Below, piece by piece: positions 6,033 through 59,295 of a stretch of DNA of 64,000 bases. Positions within the stretch are counted from its first letter, which is position 1. Each line of letters starts with the position of its first letter. The position numbers were made by a program, and so were the translations under genes. The stretch comes from Octopus sinensis (taxonomy: Eukaryota), in contig NC_043002.1 of the NCBI RefSeq assembly GCF_006345805.1, positions 10,478,001 through 10,542,000 of the forward strand, read 5' to 3'. Under the pieces are notes generated by a model, which worked only from the letters and a program-made list of their open reading frames with translations, was not told the origin of the DNA and searched no databases.

Positions 6033-6710
6033 CAATATATGGAAGTGAGGCATGGGTTTACCGTAGGCAGGTAAAGCAATTGGAACGATTTCATCAAAAC
6101 TGGCTGAGAAAAATGTTGTGTATAAACTGGGAAAAGGCCATTATTAATGCGGAGGTGCTTGAGAGGAGTGGCAGTAGAAGTCTAGAGTCAATGATTTTGC
6201 AAAGACGTTTAAAAGTGTAGGGACATTTGGTAAGGATGACTAATGAGTGACTGCCCAAGCAGCTATTGTATGGTAAGCGGGAAGATGGGAGGAGACCAGT
6301 GCAAAGGCCTAAATTAAGGTTTAAGGATTGCCTTAAAATGCGCTAATACAGACACGAATTGTAGCTGGTAATTGGGAGAAGGAGGCACAAGACCGTGATG
6401 GATGGAGGGAGGGAGGAAGATAGTGCATGATGGTTGTTCAAGGATTGAGAGGGAGAGAGTGAAGTAGGAGAGAATTAGGAGGGGGCTTAGAAGGGAAACC
6501 TGTGGAAAGTGAGAGAGTGTTACTTTTTATGTTTTTGGTTTGTAGGCGGAGGATTTTGAGTCGTGCAGGCCTGGTGAGTCATCAAAATTCTCATAGAAAT
6601 CGACCCATGATAAACAATGATGTGGCTATTAAAATTCATAGCAGAGCGTGTGTAAAATGTGGAAGAGTGTGCCTCTTAGTTGGAGGTCTATAAAAAGCGT
6701 ACATATGGTG
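6033..6710 (+). mobile_element. RTE-clade LINE 3' fragment
   Basis: [64 protein letters not shown], then C2H2-like (C..CRR.ILSRAGLVSHQNSH) residues typical of RTE ORF C-termini; internal stops. Confidence 0.85.
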
Positions 6711-6900
6711 GCACCTGTTTCCCCTGCCACCCTTACGGCAGGGATACAACATTTCACCTCTCTCACATTTCCCTGCCTTCTCTTCTCACTCACTTTCCCT
6801 CCTCTTTTCACTTCACTGTGTCCCTGTCATTTTTTCTCGTCCCTCCTTAATTCTTCTATCCCTTTGCCTCTATCTCCTGTGGATTGCTCAGTCACTTGTA

Positions 6901-6975
6901 CGTTTATTTCCTGAGCAGGCTGTTCCGTTGATCGTATGAGCTGGGATCTTCGTCGTCGTAACCGACGGAGTGACC
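6901..6975 (+). mobile_element. 3' tail fragment of SINE family A (tail type a)
   Basis: gagcaggctgttccgttgatc...cgtcgtcgtaaccgacggagtg is the reverse complement of the tail at 44861-44930. Confidence 0.75.
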
Positions 6976-6987
6976 CTATATATATAT

Positions 6988-7050
<63 letters not shown>

Positions 7051-7227
7051 GTATACGCTAGCAGGCAACAAGTATATACTAGTCTATGCACACAGATTTA
7101 TATATTTGAATGATGGACCATATGAGCATCAGAGAATGTACTTTTGTAAATGTATTTGAAGATACAGTTGTGAGAGAGTGCGGGAATCTTTATAGATCTA
7201 TCGAAATTACCACTTCACTTTAATCTC

Positions 7228-7447
7228 AATATGAAATTAACAACTGGTTATTTATCTGATCTGACTGTTTCCCCGGGCTTCAATCGTTTTTATCTCTCTC
7301 AGATCTCTTTCGCTTAACGCATAAAGTTACGCATAAATTTCAATATTTGTCTCAATACGAAGGTAATAACTGGTTATTTATCTGATCGCACTGCTTCCCT
7401 AGACCTCTTTCGTTTTTATTTCTCTCAGATCTCTTTCGCTTAACGCT
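7228..7447. repeat. Diverged ~126-bp-period direct repeat
   Basis: aactggttatttatctgatc...tctctcagatctctttcgcttaacgc at ~7242-7320 and ~7368-7446. Confidence 0.75.
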
Positions 7448-17377: not shown

Positions 17378-18164
17378 AAGGCGGCGAGCTGGCAGAAACG
17401 CTAACGCGCCGGGCGAAATGCTTAGCGGTATTTCGGCTGCCGTTACGTTGTGAGTTCAAATTCCGCCGAGGTCGACTTTGCCTTTCATCCTTTCGGGGTC
17501 GATAAATTAAGTACCAGTTAAGCAATGGGGTCGATATAATCGACTTAATACCTATGTCTGTCCATGTTTGTCTCCTCTATGTTTAGCCCCTTGTGGGTAA
17601 TAAAGAAATAGGTATTTCGCCTGTCGCTACGTTCTGAGTTCAAATTCCGCCGAGGTCGACTTTGCCTTTCATCCTTTCGGGGTCGATTAAACAAGTACCA
17701 GTTACGCACTGGGGTCGATATAATCGACTTAATACCTATGTCTGTCCATGTTTGTCTCCTCTATGTTTAGCCCCTTGTGGGTAATAAAGAAATAGGTATT
17801 TCGCCTGTCGCTACGTTCTGAGTTCAAATTCCGCCGAGGTCGACTTTGCCTTTCATCCTTTCGGGGTCGATTAAACAAGTACCAGTTACGCACTGGGGTC
17901 GATATAATCGACTTAATCCGTTTGTCTGTCCTTGTTTGTCCCTTTTGTGTTTAGCCCCTTGTGGGTAGTAAAGAAATAGGTATTTCGTCAGCCGCTACGT
18001 TCTGATTTCAAATTCCGCCTAGATCGACTTTGCCTTTCATTCTTTCGGGGTCGATTAAATAAGTACCAGTTACGCACTGGGATCGATATATTCGGCTTAA
18101 TCCGTTTGTCTGTCCTTGTTTGTCCCCTCTGTTTTTAGCCCCTTGTGGGTAGTAAAGAAATAGG
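17378..18164 (+). mobile_element. SINE family C, one head followed by four 184-bp body units
   Basis: Head aaggcggcgagctggcagaaacg; ggtattt at 17427, 17611, 17795, 17979, 18163; B-box gagttcaaattcc in each unit; flanked by gta(c/t)ttaaattga. Confidence 0.92.
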
Positions 18165-20065
18165 TATTTAAATTGAAAAGGTAGAGATCTGGAAGAAATG
18201 CGGATTGGCAATTTCGTCGGATGCTCAAACGATTCTACCGGTTCGCTGCCTCTCTGTGAAGAAATATATGTTTCAAATTTTGGCACAATGCCAGAAAGCT
18301 GTGAAGCAAGGAGATTTGATAATTACATTGACCCCAGTACGTTACTGGCATTTTATTTTACTAGCACTTAAGAAAAGTTAACCTCAGTAGTATTTGAACT
18401 CAGAATGTAAAGAACCGGAAGGTAAAAAACCCGCTAAGCAAATTTTCCCGACGCCCTAACGATTCCGCCAGCACATCACCAATTGAGGGAGAAATATTGT
18501 TGCTTTTAGTACAGGTACAATGCCTGAAAATCGTGAGAAAGGCCTATTTCGTTACTTTATTTTATTCACCCGGAAAAGATGAAAAGCTAAGTCGACCTTG
18601 GCGGGAGTTGAACCCAGAATGTTAAGGATCAGTACAAATACCGCAAAGTATTTTGTACAATGCTCTAAAGATTCTGACAGCTTTCCATGATGAAATATAA
18701 TGATAACAATTTTTCATTAAGCGGCACGATGGCTATTTATATTATTTCACCGATTGGTGAAACGGAAAGTGCAATGTTTAGTTATTTACCAAGAGCTTAG
18801 GCATTAAATAAAAAGCGATGATATTTCTAGCAGTAATTGAAAGTAAGTCGAAAGAAACGAGACTTATCTCATTGCTCTACGATGCGCTGCGACCAAGAGG
18901 AGTAATGATGGTATTGATTATTATCATTTTGTTTTTCCATGTAGCGAACGATTAGAGTAAGAGATATCCTTTTTATAAGTCGAAACTACGATTCTGTATT
19001 GATTTTCAGCTGATGAAACTTCTCTTGTTCTGCTAATTTCTTGGGAAATCTTTTTGATCATCACAATGTCTCATCGTTCCATTTTCCAAAAAATATATTA
19101 GAAAAGTGATTAGTTGTATTATTTTCTTGCCCCAAATTATGATCACAAATTGTTAAAAAGATCGCGTTTTAGATCTCACTCAAAACTTACCCTAGCGTTT
19201 TCACTTCACTAATCCCACTGGGAAAGCTTTGAATGATGCAAGTTTATATTTTAACACCTGGAAAACATTGGGGAGGGGTGTACATAATTTCATTGATCCA
19301 ATTTTTTTTTCACCAATGCTGCTTCTTCAACCCTTCATAAACCAGGATTCAATCGAGTAATGATGAAGGAACTGCGTAACTAGAACTGCATTTGTCAATG
19401 TATTATTTCCTATTCTACAAGAAGTAATTTCAAGTTGCTACTTCTCACAGATCGAGTGACTACACTGTGGCTCACTGGTTGGCTTGGGTCTGGAAACCCG
19501 CAAAGTGTTTTTTTGTTTCAATATATGCTCTAGTCCTTTACTGTTTCTGCCTCTCCTACATACATCTACACCTCTTATTTGTCTCTGAAATATTGGTTTA
19601 AAGTTTCTGATAAGATTTACACCGCCACCAGTGTCCAGTTAATCATTATTTTATCGATACTTACAAGATAAAACGAAAACGCCGACCTCATTGGAATTTG
19701 AACTTACAACGTAAAGAACCGGACGAAATGCTGCTAGGCATTGCTTGCCCGACACACTAACGATTCTACCAACTCACCACCTTTTTGTTCTCTGAGTTAT
19801 AAATAGTTTGAACGGAATGGTGACGATATAATGTGAAAAAAATGTCTGCCTGAGTTTCCCGGAGCTTGTGCTCTACAGAGATCAGCGGTATAAGTATATA
19901 AAAGAAGGCGTAAGTATAAACAGTGATATCTGTGGATACTAGTCCAAACACTATACTATCGGTTTTATTTTAAGAGATTAAGAAGTAAAGTTAATACTGG
20001 CAGAGTCTGTGCCAAAAACATGGATAAGTAAAACTACTTCTGTTACCATATCAGTAATATTAGAT

Positions 20066-23715: not shown

Positions 23716-24189
23716 ACACATCATACTTTCATTTTTTCGTTCGCTTTAGTCTATGTTCCATGCATGCCCTTATTTCCTCTTACAAATAAATGATAACACC
23801 TTTTACTCGTCCTCGAAACAGGACTTGCTCAGGTGAATCGACACCGATTCATGTGTATGTATAAGTGTATATGCATACATACATACATACATACATACAT
23901 ACATACATACATGTATATATATATATATATATTTTTTTTATCCTACATTAGTTATATATATATAAATATTTTTATATAACTAATGTAGGATAAAAATTTT
24001 TCGGGAAAACTTTTTATTAATGGCCAGCATATCAAAAAATACCTTTAAAGGTTAAATTTATAAATAATTTACAAGATAAGGGCAAAAGAAAAATTCTAAT
24101 GCCAAATATGCCGAAAAAAAGACAAAAATTGTCAATAACCATTATGATTTATGCGTCTCGAAACAAACCGATAGAAATTTCTAAAAATT

Positions 24190-24260
24190 CGTTATTACCG
24201 TATTGGTCCCAATTTCGGGGTTAATTCATAAGAATTTTCCCCTCTTCAGCGGCAAATACG
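24190..24260 (-). ncRNA. Candidate minimal type-I hammerhead ribozyme
   Basis: Minus strand: cgtatttgccg-CTGAAGA-gggg[aaaattcttatgaattaa]cccc-GAAA-ttgg[ga]ccaa-TA-cggtaataacg. All core nucleotides and three stems are present. Confidence 0.8.
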
Positions 24261-24545
24261 CGAGATATAAGTGAAATACTTACTCATACCCATGGAAAAA
24301 GCAAGCACCAAGTCCCGAGCAGACCTAAGTACCCCAAATATATCCAAAATAGAAAATCTTCGGCACATCTTCGGAAGTTCACTTCCGGATTCTCTCACTC
24401 TGTGAAAGTTTCTAGTTCGAATCACACGTGTCTCGAGATGTGCCAAAGATTTTCTATTTTGGATATATTTGGGGTACTTAGGTCCGCTCAGGACTCAGTG
24501 CTTGCTTTTTCCATGGGTATGAGTAAGTATTTCACTTATATCTCA

Positions 24546-24615
24546 CGTATTTGCCGCTGAAGAGGGGAAAATTTTTATGAATTAACCTCGAAATTGGACC
24601 AATACGGTAATAACG
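24546..24615 (+). ncRNA. Candidate minimal type-I hammerhead ribozyme
   Basis: cgtatttgccg-CTGAAGA(24557-63)-gggg...cctc-GAAA(24590-93)-ttgg[a]ccaa-TA-cggtaataacg; predicted cleavage 3' of A24604. Confidence 0.77.
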
Positions 24616-24897
24616 AATTTTTTAGAAATTTCTATTGGTTTGTTTCGAGACGCATAAATTATAATGGTTATTGACAATTTTTGTCTTTTTTTCGGCATAT
24701 TTGGCATTAGAATTTTTCTTTTGCCCTTATCTTGTAAATTATATATATATATATATATTATATATATATATTATATATATAATATATATATATATATATT
24801 ATATATATATATAATATTATATATATATATATATATATAATATATATATGTATATACATATATATATAATATTAGTGAGAATATTTTATATATTTTA

Positions 24898-24928
<31 letters not shown>

Positions 24929-25216
24929 GCATACAATGGTTGTCTACTCCTTATGCAGAGTTTGACCACCTCCTCTACCTAGACATCTGATGTAGCTTTT
25001 TAAACCGGAAAATGTTTTGAAAATATCGTGAAGTATATTTGCCATTTAAATATGGCAAACCCCTAAGGGTGGATGCTACTGTAGCTTGTAGCCCCAGGAG
25101 GACATCTCCTCCAGCTGGCTGTTTTGAAAATACACTCCTATAAATTGCATAACCGATTTGGACCATCAAGAGCAGCAGTTAAGTTCTGATCTTCGTGGAT
25201 CTTAAAATGAATATAT

Positions 25217-28859: not shown

Positions 28860-29760
28860 GTGTGCATATATGGGTACAGGACGTCACCAACTGTGTGAAT
28901 AACATGAAGTACGAATATAAACGAGTTAAATAGGCAAAACAAAACAGGAGAAAAATGAATAGCTGGACAAATAACACAGAGAATGACCCTTCATTAATTG
29001 TCGGCTGTCTATCTACTCCTCATTTCCAGCATTCAACGACAATATGAATCCTGGAAAGCAGTTACTCCTATAAATTCCAAAATATAATTTGGGATTTATG
29101 GAGGGTCAAAGTTGGGACAAAAACAAGACACTGGAGACACACAAGGAAACCGAACGAAAACAACTGTGTTCTTGTTGAGCGTATTCAGGCGTGTGTCAGG
29201 AGACTTTTCATAGATTTGGATTGTCTCTTGTTTTTTATGATGGTGTGCGTTTGGAAGATTAAGTTCATTCTGTGGTCCTTTTCTAGCAGGGGAATGTCTT
29301 CAAGGATGGTGTTGAAGTCTTCATTTGTTAAGAGGGTTGTGTGTGGAGATATATGGTTGGGCTGTTGGTTGTAAATCCTTCTTTAATTTGGGATGTGAGT
29401 TCGTGGACGTTGAGATGAAGGGCACGTTGAAAGCATATGTCAATTAGTGGAGGTGGGTAGTTCCTGGTGACGAGTGCATCATCTAGTTCATGTAGTCGTA
29501 TGTCTCTGGTGCTTGCATTAGAAACTATAGTACATATCCTTTTTGCTAGGTTGAAGGGGATATTCATTCTGGTGTGTCTGGGGTGGCATGAGTTGAAGGA
29601 TAGATATTGCTTGGAGTCCGTGGGCTTATAGTATATAGCTGTTTCTATTACGTTGTTAGATTTCTTAAAGAGGATGTCGAAGAAAGGGAAGTGAATTGAA
29701 TGTTTATTTCAAGTCCATTTATAAGTGCTTGGAATTCTTTTAGTTTCCCTGTTTTCATGC
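28860..29760 (-). mobile_element. Penelope-like element fragment (RT thumb/linker plus terminal-repeat-like sequence)
   Basis: [11 protein letters not shown]...YYKPTDSKQYLSFNSCHPRHTRMNIPFNLAKRICTIVSN, homologous to 38280-38770. Confidence 0.9.
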
Positions 29761-29777
29761 CAAAGAAAGCAACAGTC

Positions 29778-37609: not shown

Positions 37610-39857
37610 ACGCATGCAAGATAGCCACAGACAAAAATATTAAAGTCCCTAATACTAATGACCTCAAATTGAGACCCATAATAGCAGGTCCCGCATGCGA
37701 AACCCACCGCCTCAGTAACTTTTTAGACACCCTGTTAAAACCACTCCTCAAACATGTCAAAAGCTATATAAGGGACGACTTAGATATGCTCAATCACCTA
37801 CCGAATACTATAAACCAAAACACCATACTGGTATCCTTCGATGTAGTCAACCTCTACTCCAATATCCCCTACAACCTAGGACTAGAGGCAATCCAATTCT
37901 GGCTAGAGAATCACGCCAACGAACTACCACACCGCATCAAAAGAAATTCGTGATAGAAGGGGTTAAATTCATCCTGGAAATAACTTTCTTCCGCCTTCAA
38001 TGACAACTTCTATACCGACAAAAATCGGGGACTGCGATGGGTACACGAATGGCCCCCTCCTTTGCCAACCTAGTCATAGGATACCTAGAGATCAGTCTAT
38101 ATCGTAAGGTTCTAGAAAGATATGGCAGCCCTTTCTCCATCTACATAGAAAACAACTGGAAGAGATATCTAGATGACTGTTTTATTCTTTGGCATAAAAA
38201 TATAGAAAAAACTCATAGAATTCCAGGAAATTTAAACGGGCTGGACGTAACATCCAATTCACGATGGAATATAGCCAGCAACACTTCCCTTCCTCGATAT
38301 CCTCATTAAGAAAGCTAATAATATAATAGAAACAGACATTACTATAAACCTACAGACTCTAAGCAATATCTTCCATTCAATTCATGCCACCCCAGACACA
38401 CCAGGATGAATATCCCCTTCAATCTAGCAAAAAGGATATGCACTATAGTCTCTAACGCAAACACCAGAGACACACGACTACAAGAACTAAAAGATACCCT
38501 TATCACCAGGAACTATCCACCTTCACTTATTGACAAGTGCATTCAACGTGCCCTTCAACTTAACATCAAGGAACTGACATTCCAATCAAAGAAAACTTAC
38601 AACAAAAAGCCTTACCATACATCTCCGCACACCCTCTCAATAACGAAGCCTTCGGCACCATCCTCCACAACATACCCCTCCTAAAAAAAGACCACAGAAT
38701 GAACACAATCCTCCAAACACACGATCATAAAAAGCAAAAGACAGCCTAGATCCATGAAAAGTCTTCTAACACAAGCCCGAATTCACTCTTCAACACAGAA
38801 GCCGACAGTAAAAAAATGTGGAAGACCCAATTGCGGGATATGCGACTATCTAATCGAGGGTTCTGAGTTCTCCTTCAAACAGGGACAACGGTTTACAGTG
38901 AAAAGCAACTTCACATGTGCTTCGGAGAACCTAATATACTCACTAACCTGCTCCGGGTGTCAAGAGCAGTACATAGGCCAAACAAAAAATGGTTTGCGTA
39001 AACGAATGGCCCTGCACAGATCCCAGATAAAATTCCCCAAAACAGAAAAATAGCTTTTAGCCAACACATAGATACTTGCGCCAACAAAAAAACACCAACT
39101 TCAGAATTTTCCCCCTCTACCAATTTAGGGACGATACAACCTCGAGACAACGAATAAGTTAAGAAAATCTCTTTATTATAAAATACAGGCCACTTCTTAA
39201 CGGGCCTACGACAAACAATTAATATAGCTCAACTTAAGAATAAAGAATATATATACACACACACAATATTACATTCCATAGAATCCATTACTAATCGCCC
39301 CAAAACAGATATATCTTCACCCATTCATATTCTCCCTTTTCTGTTTTTTTTCTTCTTCTCCCTCTTCTTCTTCTTCTTCATCATCATCGTTATCATCATC
39401 ATCGTCGTCATCGTCATCACCACCATCATCATCGTCATCTTCTCCTTCTCCTTCTTCTTCTTCATCGTCATCATCATCGGCACCGTCATCATCTTCTTCT
39501 TCTTCTTCTACTTCTCCACCTTCTACCCCCACTAATGTCTTTAAGTATAACGCCTACGCAGCGACTGCCGGTCGCCACTGACCAGCCCAGAGTTTCCCAC
39601 TCCCACCCCCTCAAGAACTCACAACGACCTCGAATACACAAGTGCAAACAAGGGAGTCAGAGAAAGGCAGAATGCCACATATATCTGAACACTACTATGG
39701 AAGTATTCCTTTAAAAAAACCTTTCTTCTAATTTTTCAAATTTTTTTCAAAATTTAATTATTTAATCGTTACAGTTGAAAAGGTCTCAAAGACCGAAACC
39801 GGTACTGAAAGATTCACTATAAAATCATCTTAGCATTTTCTATTTTTGACTTGTTTT

Positions 39858-39865
<8 letters not shown>
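37610..39865 (+). mobile_element. Penelope-like retroelement: RT + C-terminal GIY-YIG endonuclease (frameshifted) + pLTR-like 3' region
   Basis: RPIIAGP, LVSFDVVNLYSNIP, GTAMGTRMAPSFANL, WKRYLDDCF, YKPTDSKQYL..NSCHP, CGRPNCGIC, CASENLIYSLTCSGCQEQYIGQT...RMALH; both ends abut (TA)n. Confidence 0.95.
39764..39814 (+). ncRNA. Degenerate minimal hammerhead ribozyme in the Penelope 3' region
   Basis: cag-TTGAAAA (CTGANGA with 2 changes)-ggtc[tcaaa]gacc-GAAA-ccgg-TA-ctg; palindromic stem III. Confidence 0.7.
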
Positions 39866-41518: not shown

Positions 41519-41562
<44 letters not shown>

Positions 41563-42265
41563 ATGTTTTTTGTATGAATTACGTATCGCCACCGTGGGCC
41601 ACTGCATCGAACACTTTGAACATATACTTCAAACTATATATCAACTATACATGAACTATATGTAACTCTAAATGTCTCGACACTCCGTTGTGTATTATAA
41701 ATGAATTTCTTGTGTTTGACGGCATGAGCTGTCTTTTTTTATATATAACTTTTTTTGATAAGGTTCATTTCAGGAACTGAAACATGTTATAATGTATATA
41801 TAAAAATTAAAAATTGTATAATACAGCAGCATTTTCGAACTTCATTTTTTACAAATATATATATATGTATAGATATATATATGTATATATATATATATGT
41901 ATATATATATATACATATATATATATATAAGGATGCATTCCTATGACAATGGTGAATCGTTTTTATATTCTTTTGCTTCCTTCTCATGGCTCTTCTAAGC
42001 TCTCTGTCCACTCAGCGTACCTCTCTCCGTTAACGACCAGATATGTCTGAGAAGATAAAGGAGAATTAAGCCCTCGCCGTCCCCAAAAGCCAGTTATAAT
42101 AATTCTCAGTGGCGGTAGGGTTTTGCTGCCCTGCTCGAAGTTTTATCGGATGCAGTTGTGCATCGTTAACCAACTAGAAGAGACGTCCTTTTGGGTTTAA
42201 AAAAATCACAATAGAGTCCACTCGAACAGACACCCATGTTAAAGTGGCTACGAATATTACTTGTC

Positions 42266-56691: not shown

Positions 56692-57105
56692 AAGGCGGCG
56701 AGCTGGCAGAAACGTTAGCACGCCGGGAGAAATGCTTAGCGGTATTTCGTCCGACGCTGCGTTCTGAGTTCAAATTCCACCGAGGGTAACTTTGCCTTTC
56801 ATCCTTTTGGGGTCGATTAAATAAGTGCCAGTTACGCACTGGTGTCGATGTAATCGACGTAATCCCTTTGTCTGTCCGCGTTTGTCCTCTCTGTGTTCAG
56901 ACCCTTGTGGGTAGTAAAGAAATAGGTATTTCGTCTGCCGTCACGTTCTGAGTTCAAACTCCGCCGAGGTTAATTTTGCCTTTCATCCTTACGGGATCGA
57001 TTAAATAAGTATCAGTTACGCACTGGGGTCGATGTAATCGACTCAATCCGTTTGTCTGTCCTTGTTTGTCCCCTCTATGTTTAGCCCCTTGTGGGCAATA
57101 AAGAA
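56692..57105 (+). mobile_element. SINE family C dimer (184-bp period) within a TSD
   Basis: ggtatttcg at 56741 and 56925; aattaaa(c)cattttacata on both sides. Confidence 0.9.
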
Positions 57106-58083: not shown

Positions 58084-59196
58084 CTACATACCTCGTTTGA
58101 CAGACACCAATTTAAAATGATGTGTTCCTGGAAATGTAGCTAGCTGAACTTCTCTGTACACATTGCTTTGCAGTTGTCTTGATGGTGTGGAGACGTTCAT
58201 CTGGTGGTGAGGGCAGTAGATTTTTATACAAATAGCGCAGAAAATATGTAAGAAGTTCTTCCAAAATATCGTGTTGAATATGCAATAGAGTATAAAATTC
58301 ACCGCTGAGTTAATAAGAAGTAATAGATCGGTTATCTCGCGAATGCCACGAGTTAAATAATCTTCTTCGATATATCCAAAACCAAGGATGGTGGACATGA
58401 TGGCATCAGGCGATATACAAACCATGAATACCAAGACAACACAGACCAACATGATGGTAATGCGGTATCGTCTCATATTCTTGGATTTGCTTAGTTTACA
58501 ACGCCTAATACCACACATTATACAAGTATTTAATACTATTAAAGTTAAGAGCGGAATTACTGAACGAATGAGGTTTTGAAACCAAGTGTAAGCCCTGGAG
58601 AAGACATTGTTTTGCCAGAGTTTCGTGACTGACATATCCATTAAAGTCTGATTTGTTCTATTATCGTACACTTCAAAAGACTGGTATCTCATTGCATATG
58701 GTATGGATAGCATACTCATAAAGAAGTAAACACATACAGTTATAATGCGGGCGCGGTGAATAGTGCAGTAAGATTTCACGTAGAGTGGTTTACACACGTA
58801 AACATATCGTTCCACTGCGACAGATACGGTGATCCACGCCGATATGCATAACGACGTATTGAATATATAATGGGCGTAAGGATATAAACCTTGATATAAA
58901 GACTCTCCTGTGCGTTTGTCTATCTCCATCAGTAATATGACGATGAAATAGAGAAAGTCGTTGATGAGTTTTATGCTATCAGAAAAGGCCAAAGCCAAGA
59001 GGTAGATATTTGTCGAGGACTGCATTTGCTTTTGGGTCATCACGATAATGCTCATTGTGTTTCCTATAAGGCCGATTGAGCAGGCGATTGGGTAACATAC
59101 GAGACCGGTGATGGAACGCGCTTCCAAGTAGAACTGTTCGTAAGCATTATAACTCTTTGTGGTGATAATGTTCGTGAGGTTTTCTGACGGAATCAT
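58084..59196 (-). CDS. Class A (rhodopsin-like) GPCR, FMRFamide/sex-peptide-receptor-like peptide receptor group, single coding exon, 370 aa
   Basis: Seven hydrophobic segments; TM1 GLIGN, TM2 STNIYLLALAFSD, TM3 AWITVSVAVERY..VCKP, TM5 IPLLTLIVLN, TM6 FMVCISP, TM7 NSAVNFILY; N-glycosylation sequons NLT, NRT, NQT; in-frame stop upstream of the ATG. Confidence 0.95.
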   Translation of the reverse strand: MIPSENLTNIITTKSYNAYEQFYLEARSITGLVCYPIACSIGLIGNTMSIIVMTQKQMQSSTNIYLLALAFSDSIKLINDFLYFIVILLMEIDKRTGESLYQGLYPYAHYIFNTSLCISAWITVSVAVERYVYVCKPLYVKSYCTIHRARIITVCVYFFMSMLSIPYAMRYQSFEVYDNRTNQTLMDMSVTKLWQNNVFSRAYTWFQNLIRSVIPLLTLIVLNTCIMCGIRRCKLSKSKNMRRYRITIMLVCVVLVFMVCISPDAIMSTILGFGYIEEDYLTRGIREITDLLLLINSAVNFILYCIFNTIFWKNFLHIFCAICIKIYCPHHQMNVSTPSRQLQSNVYREVQLATFPGTHHFKLVSVKRGM

Positions 59197-59295
59197 TCTC
59201 GCCTTTAATTCTTCATTTCTCCTGAAGTCGAACTTTTACTTGTGGTAACCAGTTCATTATTTTTCACCATTCAGCCTAAATTAAAATACAAAAAT
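59197..59295 (-). promoter_or_regulatory. Putative splice acceptor and 5'UTR with two uORFs
   Basis: Minus strand tttttgtattttaatttag|GCTG (exon start 59275); uORFs 59270-59205 (21 aa) and 59257-59213 (14 aa), both out of frame with the GPCR ATG. Confidence 0.5.

Follow-up and report, generated by a model that had tools for sequence, protein, structure and literature searches.

Two head-to-head copies of a hammerhead repeat in Octopus sinensis, probably a single insertion primed from both target ends by a Penelope-type enzyme

In the 64-kb window of the Octopus sinensis genome analysed here (the whole stretch of DNA, 64,000 nt), a foldback with one hammerhead ribozyme on each strand is very probably a single insertion of a 468-bp hammerhead repeat, present as two 5'-truncated copies placed head to head, which the reverse transcriptase-endonuclease of a Penelope-like element (PLE) would have copied into (TA)n with both DNA ends priming at two start sites. 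Family-wide counts lead us to favour, with less assurance, a strict rule in which one arm comes from a long reverse transcription site and the other from a short one, the lengths of the arms being independent; a PLE enzyme would prime both cut ends, also on gene-less retrozyme RNA, and would have seeded the genome with about a hundred long ribozyme hairpins belonging to just this one family. On its sequence, we judge the octopus element to be a new member of the non-LTR retrozyme or non-autonomous PLE kind.

The arms of the inverted repeat (24064-24370 and, reverse-complemented, 24436-24742) match at 296 positions and differ by 10 mismatches, every one a transition, and two single-base indels; they are separated by 65 nt (24371-24435), which bears out the ~307-bp inverted arms and 65-nt spacer described in the first-pass annotation. 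Its limits of 24064 and 24742 hold for the arms but not for the insertion, which extends left to 23975, and the spacer, correct in length, is not a separate part: 24377-24435 (plus strand) corresponds to monomer positions 105-163, element sequence that belongs to the right arm only. The left arm is a 5'-truncated monomer copy on the minus strand (23975-24370, reference positions 164-562; blastn to the natural copy L004, 95.5% over 400 columns) and ends in the long, tailed 3' end, with its outer end at 23975. The tail (23975-24063, minus strand) comprises the shared TA junction and about 81 nt past the short end; it includes a hairpin followed by 14 nt and is missing from the right arm. The right arm, also a 5'-truncated copy (24377-24741, plus strand; reference 105-481 by alignment to L004), stops at the short, tail-less 3' end and runs straight into the (TA)n array that received it (24740-24928). 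The earlier description of a setting in (TA)n is right for this end, which adjoins the array directly, but on the left a short TA-rich stretch lies between the tail and a stub, 22 nt of the same family's long 3' end (23935-23956, plus strand; blastn 22/22, E 1.6e-5), which sits tail-to-tail with the left arm and is probably a separate, heavily truncated insertion. Any target-site duplication would be masked by the (TA)n at the ends. The inversion junction itself contains a small palindrome, visible in the sequence, with 7-bp arms and a 2-nt loop (24371-24385), likely the trace of a brief self-primed fold-back at the right arm's 5' truncation point. Just right of the foldback lies a piece of a dispersed repeat, ~97 nt long (25023-25119), 92% identical to sequence in L022 and L095.

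Inside the right-arm spacer, a B-box-like GTTCGAATC is found at 24415-24423 on the plus strand; the motif reads GTTCRAATC in most copies of the sampled subfamilies, the variable base belonging to a CpG. No A box was evident near this motif, and ARAGORN detected no tRNA in the 64-kb window. A putative Pol III promoter at 24415-24423 is a weak lead.

Each arm presents, in order, stem I, CUGAAGA, stem II, GAAA, a palindromic stem III, UA and stem I'. The right-arm hammerhead occupies 24546-24615 on the plus strand (core CUGAAGA at 24557-24563, GAAA at 24590-24593) and the left-arm hammerhead 24190-24260 on the minus strand, where the core starts at 24249, loop III has 4 nt and the cut is predicted between 24201 and 24200. 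In both arms the type I core is complete from C3 to H17 (C3 U4 G5 A6 N7 G8 A9 / G12 A13 A14 A15.1 / U16.1 H17) and sits at a three-way junction open at stem I, as had been claimed for each strand, and the plus-strand cut, predicted 3' of A24604, falls where the first-pass annotation placed it. Stem I consists of 6 bp, a 2x2 loop and 3 bp, and stem II, longer than the first-pass annotation drew it, of 4 bp, a 2x2 loop and 5 bp; with 6 bp of stem I and 4 bp of stem II preceding them, the 2x2 loops are suitably positioned for a candidate loop I-loop II contact. Stem III, being palindromic, forms 4 bp with a 3- or 4-nt loop in a monomer and 10 bp between two molecules, and co-folding pairs the palindromes between molecules. 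The minimal hammerheads of PLEs, to which the ribozyme had been likened, have no or a very short stem III, an extra base between A9 and 10.1, and a stem I of 4-5 bp, whereas the octopus ribozyme has a 4-bp stem III with a 3-4-nt loop, a 6-bp stem I and no extra base between A9 and 10.1. Because of its 4-bp stem III and the lack of the extra base, it is closer to invertebrate retrozyme hammerheads than to the minimal PLE ones.

A strict motif scan, of the kind proposed earlier, recovered the sites of both arms, which were the only two in the window, and none in any of 30 block-wise Markov resamplings. The Rfam hammerhead models gave no match at the gathering score, nor at E<=10 over 24000-24800, nor at E<=0.5 on five related loci, and what Rfam did return were hairpin and TA-repeat miRNA models, all of them below threshold. 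A possible reason for this miss is the long two-part stem II, and a library match is not in itself defining for a type I hammerhead. The left-arm hammerhead fold has an energy of -18.4 kcal/mol compared to -19.2 kcal/mol for the minimum free energy (MFE) structure, for the right arm taken alone the hammerhead fold falls 2.7 kcal/mol short of the MFE, and RNAalifold favours an inactive structure in which the core pairs with stem III; in these models the right-arm energetics and the RNAalifold pairing count against activity as a monomer. The single stem II difference reported between the arms, a G-C to G-U wobble, proved to be one of two: positions 24574 and 24588 both differ, each by a C-to-T change in the right arm that is found in one of the 57 distinct sequences, and such private changes point to decay rather than covariation. 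The hammerhead RNA as such is likely to cut itself.

The repeat is best described as a self-standing 468-bp tandem monomer of retrozyme type, and the family fits the sequence-level definition of a non-LTR retrozyme. The earlier reading as an ORF-less retroelement remnant holds in that the unit is ORF-less and bears a hammerhead, and is refined in that the unit is judged not to be the leftover pLTR of a full PLE. A similarity search of the 2.7-Gb genome with the right arm gave 2,960 first-look candidates, and the 40 that were scored contained 68 matches, most of them 94-96% identical. Two hammerhead patterns matched 1,152 and 1,199 times genome-wide and never in reversed controls, answering the proposed copy-number check with more than a thousand motif matches. 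The natural copy L004 has a period of 468 nt, in partial tandem overlap; a second subfamily, B, is about 80% identical with a period of 479 and 3,948 candidates, and a third was found via the hammerhead pattern scan. Full monomers are 468-504 nt long with a GC content of 0.31-0.35, six-frame translation of L004 revealed no long open frame on either strand of the monomer, and the predicted fold of the circular monomer is more stable than those of mononucleotide shuffles. Cut-to-cut units with two hammerheads, 305-513 nt long, number 15 among those listed. The two same-strand hammerheads expected of an active retrozyme copy occur elsewhere in the family and not at the foldback locus, which has one hammerhead per strand.

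Where a copy exceeds one unit, the extra sequence is the 3' end of the preceding monomer, and copies reach about three units at most (L036, L055). They end at two fixed places, reference position 481 (short) and 562 (long), with TATATA within 20 nt past the end in 79 of 86 cases for the long end and 43 of 60 for the short. The 5' ends of copies show no clustering at the cut site (of 154, one lies within 6 nt, with about 4 expected), which implies a template that spanned the cut site, either a circle or an uncut multimer; the 5'-end data contain no direct trace of cleavage in genomic copies. None of the public runs was recorded as RNA; two presumed to be RNA gave 159 and 66 contigs of the family (query 23930-24440; 4 of 24 runs), which inform on the family only and not on transcription, ends, strand or editing at the locus. 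Fourteen pattern matches in metagenomes, GC-rich and without blastn similarity to the monomer or the stem I/III context, were taken as chance. The accessible portions of the literature hold no description of this hammerhead family, which may be catalogued in Repbase, Dfam or the repeat library of PMC13282606. Elsewhere in the window, a related repeat forms 184-bp tandem units in four copies at 17427-18169 and two at 56741-57105, in which the strict scan found no hammerhead.

Comparison of subfamilies argues that the ribozyme fold is kept under selection in the source lineages. We aligned 67 of 69 hammerheads from loci chosen by DNA similarity, leaving out one deleted and one locally duplicated copy. 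In the 57 distinct sequences, 94% of cells pair, as opposed to 24-49% in slid controls, and the core columns are invariant or nearly so in the 67 copies. Subfamilies A and B agree in their commonest core letters, and five pairs are swapped between them on both sides (columns 3/73, 12/64, 20/47, 27/40 and 53/60), spanning all three helices (stems I, II and III); another three pairs change on one side but remain paired, and the distal pair 4/72 breaks. Because a shuffle control ignores relatedness, lineage events between the subfamilies were counted instead: given 12 changed of 44 paired positions, at least five double-changed pairs have P 0.00065. The covariation evidence consists of few such events. 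Subfamily B has A-U in place of G-C at 10.1-11.1, and an additional G-C to A-U swap in stem II is present in other subfamilies. The stem covariation that the first-pass annotation proposed to look for is therefore found, and the five compensatory swaps together with unchanged core letters are what suggests selection on the source lineages. The preferential core conservation it expected takes, among single copies, the form of a lower rate that is not significant: rare changes affect 1 of 319 core positions versus 125 of 8,852 (Poisson P 0.06), and non-core hammerhead positions carry 2.0% rare changes versus 1.4% outside. The stems of inserted copies are shown to decay neutrally, and the data are suggestive of the same for the core.

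Foldbacks are frequent in this family. An inverted arm is present in 57 of 111 insertion blocks, and in 23 of 57 when loci are picked by similarity only; these counts leave aside blocks that are shorter than 120 nt, lie at the edge of a locus or repeat another exactly, as well as three segmental duplicates and two blocks duplicated locally. Among the first 100 listed sites, close hammerhead pairs were head-to-head in 11 cases (8 after collapsing a fourfold repeat), tandem in 6 and tail-to-tail in none, which extrapolates to roughly 90-125 head-to-head foldbacks in the genome. Four near-identical head-to-head hammerhead foldbacks, 112-257 kb apart at 159.7-160.3 Mb of G000:C1, are probably a segmental repeat. 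In 29 of 31 foldbacks the two arms were more alike than the median unrelated copy (mean 95.8 versus 92.7%), as expected for one event. Two unrelated small repeats (L099:6770-7860 and L095:6280-7390), each with a hammerhead that has a long stem II and a palindromic stem III, also form head-to-head foldbacks ending in TA, a manner of insertion that is apparently common to several retrozyme families.

The outer ends of these foldbacks obey a one-tail rule. Both were resolved in 37 of the 57 inverted blocks, the other 20 having an unresolved end, and all 37 combined one long with one short end, none having two long or two short ends (P 7e-12 against a coin toss); the end windows for subfamily B were reset after a first pass, and block L003 was split by hand. 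In a second set of 30 further loci, scored by eye, 7 were repeats, 8 plain and 4 unresolved, and the 11 that were resolved all had one long and one short end. A possible exception is L018, where the short end flanks a 13-nt palindrome on either side. Of the two arms, the tail-less one extends further 5' in 20 of the 37 blocks and the tailed one in 15, with 2 ties, and in 20 of the 37, the foldback locus included, each arm holds sequence absent from the other. Since an arm copied by fold-back must lie within its template, a requirement that fails in these 20 cases, simple fold-back of a cDNA is disfavoured, and the sequences are better fitted by both DNA ends priming at two sites. This agrees with the behaviour of a lizard PLE protein, which cuts and extends both strands in vitro, starting at two tail-delimiting sites (PMC11167929, in the text available). 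The accessible parts of the literature contain neither twin priming in PLEs nor a strict end rule.

We infer the following sequence of events. Tandem source copies would be transcribed, and the hammerhead would cut the multimers into monomers, which may circularise as in other animal retrozymes. A PLE protein would then cut both strands within (TA)n and, to judge from the end statistics, the long site would be used by one end, yielding the tailed arm, and the short site, 81 nt upstream, by the other, yielding the tail-less arm. Both cDNAs would stop early and be linked at their growing ends by short homology or filler of a few bases; in the resulting head-to-head palindrome, the loop would be the stretch that one cDNA alone had reached. 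After insertion the copy would decay neutrally, as shown for the stems and suggested for the core. In twin priming by L1 elements, both target ends also prime cDNA and the cDNAs join by short homology, but the second primer anneals far inside, producing an inversion without duplication; here, with starts that would be separated by 81 nt at the 3' end, the cDNAs would overlap and create a palindrome.

The most serious alternative, though in our view an unlikely one, is inversion by self-priming, in which a cDNA or antisense template would serve as its own primer after folding back, and one end would then be cut to the short site by the endonuclease. Its elements appear in the published text available, self-priming being proposed for Penelope inversions with junction palindromes (PMC3846280) and the tail being ascribed to endonuclease resolution (PMC8557442). 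It would also account for the small palindromes, which occur at the locus junction and at the 5' ends of L052, L107, L158 and L162, and for the greater likeness between the arms of a foldback than between unrelated copies. Nevertheless, the 20 blocks, the locus among them, in which one arm has the tail and the other extends further 5' are at odds with it, and a rescue requires an exact 81-nt trim of the template arm in every one. The small junction palindromes show that brief self-priming occurs too, alongside the priming from both DNA ends that we prefer.

Autonomous PLEs are present in the genome, with frames of 775-883 aa containing GIY-YIG and RVT_1 (RVT_1 just under the cut-off). A young one combines reverse transcriptase (RT) and GIY-YIG in a 781-aa frame, with (TA)n ends and a CX4CxxC linker, a linker of Neptune/Nematis type in the accessible text of PMC8557442. 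Thirty loci of the autonomous PLE, picked by their tail, comprised 25 tail-ended copies and 5 internal junctions; 10 had an inverted arm, and in the 7 where its outer end was in view the inverted arm of the tailed copy was always tail-less. The autonomous PLE thus has the same target and end pattern as the monomer, (TA)n ends and the one-tail rule, and the octopus family displays the features of non-autonomous PLEs, namely 5' truncation, partial tandems, an inverted 5' copy and a tail at one end.

Because all of its end features are PLE-like and most PLE copies are 5'-truncated, the unit might instead be the pLTR end of an unfound autonomous PLE family, seen in 5'-truncated fragments, and the search from GIY-YIG that bears on this scored 150 of 5,029 candidates. 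Among the 44 GIY-YIG-linked loci from that sample, no PLE with a pLTR homologous to the monomer was found, and the linkage to PLE ORFs suggested earlier did not emerge in this set. This alternative is improbable, since copies that run past one unit (L036, L055) enter the previous monomer's 3' end and no ORF, and the tblastn matches in five family loci are unrelated fragments with unshared junctions. Two possible links were rejected. The monomer copy at L097 lies in a 1.1-kb duplicated flank that is missing from sister copies, and the likeness between the PLE and monomer tails (a hairpin and 14 nt ending in TTATA, 8 of the 14 alike by eye) is too weak.

L097:1342-6158, with L098-L102, represents a young two-frame PLE family whose copies are 98-99% identical, in which a 479-aa frame overlaps the 781-aa RT and GIY-YIG frame, and which carries a hammerhead-like motif with U3-A8 in place of C3-G8 in the core and a weak stem I. 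The full-length PLE at L097 is flanked by near-identical 1.1-kb copies of host DNA (245-1341 and 6180-7291); the duplicated flank contains a subfamily B monomer and could be a very long target duplication, a transduction or an assembly effect. The 64-kb window holds three PLE remnants: the 3' end of an L097-type PLE (41561-41882, plus strand) with the hammerhead-like motif at 41755; a degenerate, 5'-truncated PLE of another family between TA runs (37615-39860, plus strand), which has a U3-A8 hammerhead-like motif with an ACCGGU stem III at 39775, also present in L075; and an RT fragment (29122-29777, minus strand), 47-52% identical in amino acids to L097 and interrupted near a TA array.

The first-pass annotation saw in the foldback a potential fold-dependent switch. 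Sequestration of the ribozyme is supported in silico, where the full foldback abolishes hammerhead pairing (0.0), but an evolved switch is not, and it is very improbable that the foldback at this locus is a selected fold-dependent switch or a functional source of dsRNA (ADAR/Dicer). A transcript starting at 24064 leaves zero hammerhead pairing, starts in the spacer or later leave 0.004-0.2, and the hairpin has an MFE of about -513 kcal/mol; however, a read-through transcript would be predicted to bury both ribozymes in a 300-bp duplex simply because any such inversion does so, and about half of the sampled insertions are foldbacks. The ten transitions between the arms split into four that make G-U on the plus strand and six on the minus, favouring neither strand's duplex, and the wobble that had been cited is a private C-to-T change, one of two private weakening changes in the right ribozyme. 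Moreover, stems mutate at the background rate among copies (2.0% versus 1.4%), and the only host-gene-like Pfam match, in a scan of 60 of the 197 candidate frames, is to a receptor ORF at a distance of 33 kb. That match is a single 383-aa open frame (58084-59235, minus strand) fitting a rhodopsin-family 7TM receptor model (E 7e-25). The foldback at this locus is likely ordinary, its inversion a routine by-product of Penelope-type insertion, and the locus is most likely a dead end; with one sense ribozyme per strand, it releases no cut-to-cut monomer. Finally, that the inversion is a fold-back read or assembly artefact is scarcely credible: no contig piece among those listed was shown to bridge the locus's own junction, but the arms differ at 12 places and each holds sequence the other lacks, both ends are typical of the family and land in TA, and joints of the same kind with other truncation points occur in public-run contigs (24048-24397, 24109-24396, 24133-24380 and 24185-24406 in X15, and 24120-24381 in X5).

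The family shares with animal non-LTR retrozymes (Cervera and de la Pena 2020, PMC7229834; Li, Clavereau and Pollet 2026, bioRxiv 10.64898/2026.07.22.740005) an ORF-less, low-GC monomer with one type I hammerhead, the occurrence of monomers and short tandems in thousands of copies, and PLEs in the same genome, as far as the accessible text of these sources describes them. Its monomers of 468-504 nt lie slightly above the 150-450 bp first described for such retrozymes and within the 51-972 bp of the bioRxiv report, which proposes a PLE origin of retrozymes. In contrast to those retrozymes, the octopus copies are mostly dispersed, 5'-truncated and often inverted rather than in long arrays, and the family has an extended two-part stem II that Rfam misses. 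PLE insertions, in the portions of PMC8557442, PMC3846280 and PMC11167929 available, have in common with the octopus insertions partial tandems, an inverted 5'-truncated copy at the 5' end, a head-to-head joint with a small palindrome, a tail at one end and (TA)n targets; the octopus unit, however, lacks an ORF, its tail is 81 nt rather than the published 30-40 bp, and the one-tail rule is counted here as strict and independent of arm length. The available text of PMC4209133 ascribes opposite-strand hammerhead pairs 100-700 bp apart in Schistosoma mansoni to truncated PLEs, and those ribozymes are minimal and without stem III, unlike the octopus ones with their 4-bp palindromic stem III and 6-bp stem I. 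Going by the accessible parts of these sources, opposite-strand hammerhead pairs, inverted PLE ends with a tail at one end and a PLE origin of retrozymes have all been published already.

The value of these results lies in the end rule and the family and not in the ordinary locus. They describe a hammerhead retrozyme family that is invisible to Rfam and comprises several subfamilies, with clear covariation. Both ends are visible together in its many short insertions, which is rarely so for long PLEs, and the origin of the head-to-head inversions and one-sided tails of PLEs thereby becomes testable. The end counts provide a link between genomic architecture and the two start sites observed in vitro with one lizard PLE, and they lend support to the published view that PLE proteins mobilise animal retrozymes. 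Were they read through, the hairpins would be a candidate source of long dsRNA made by the insertion mechanism itself.
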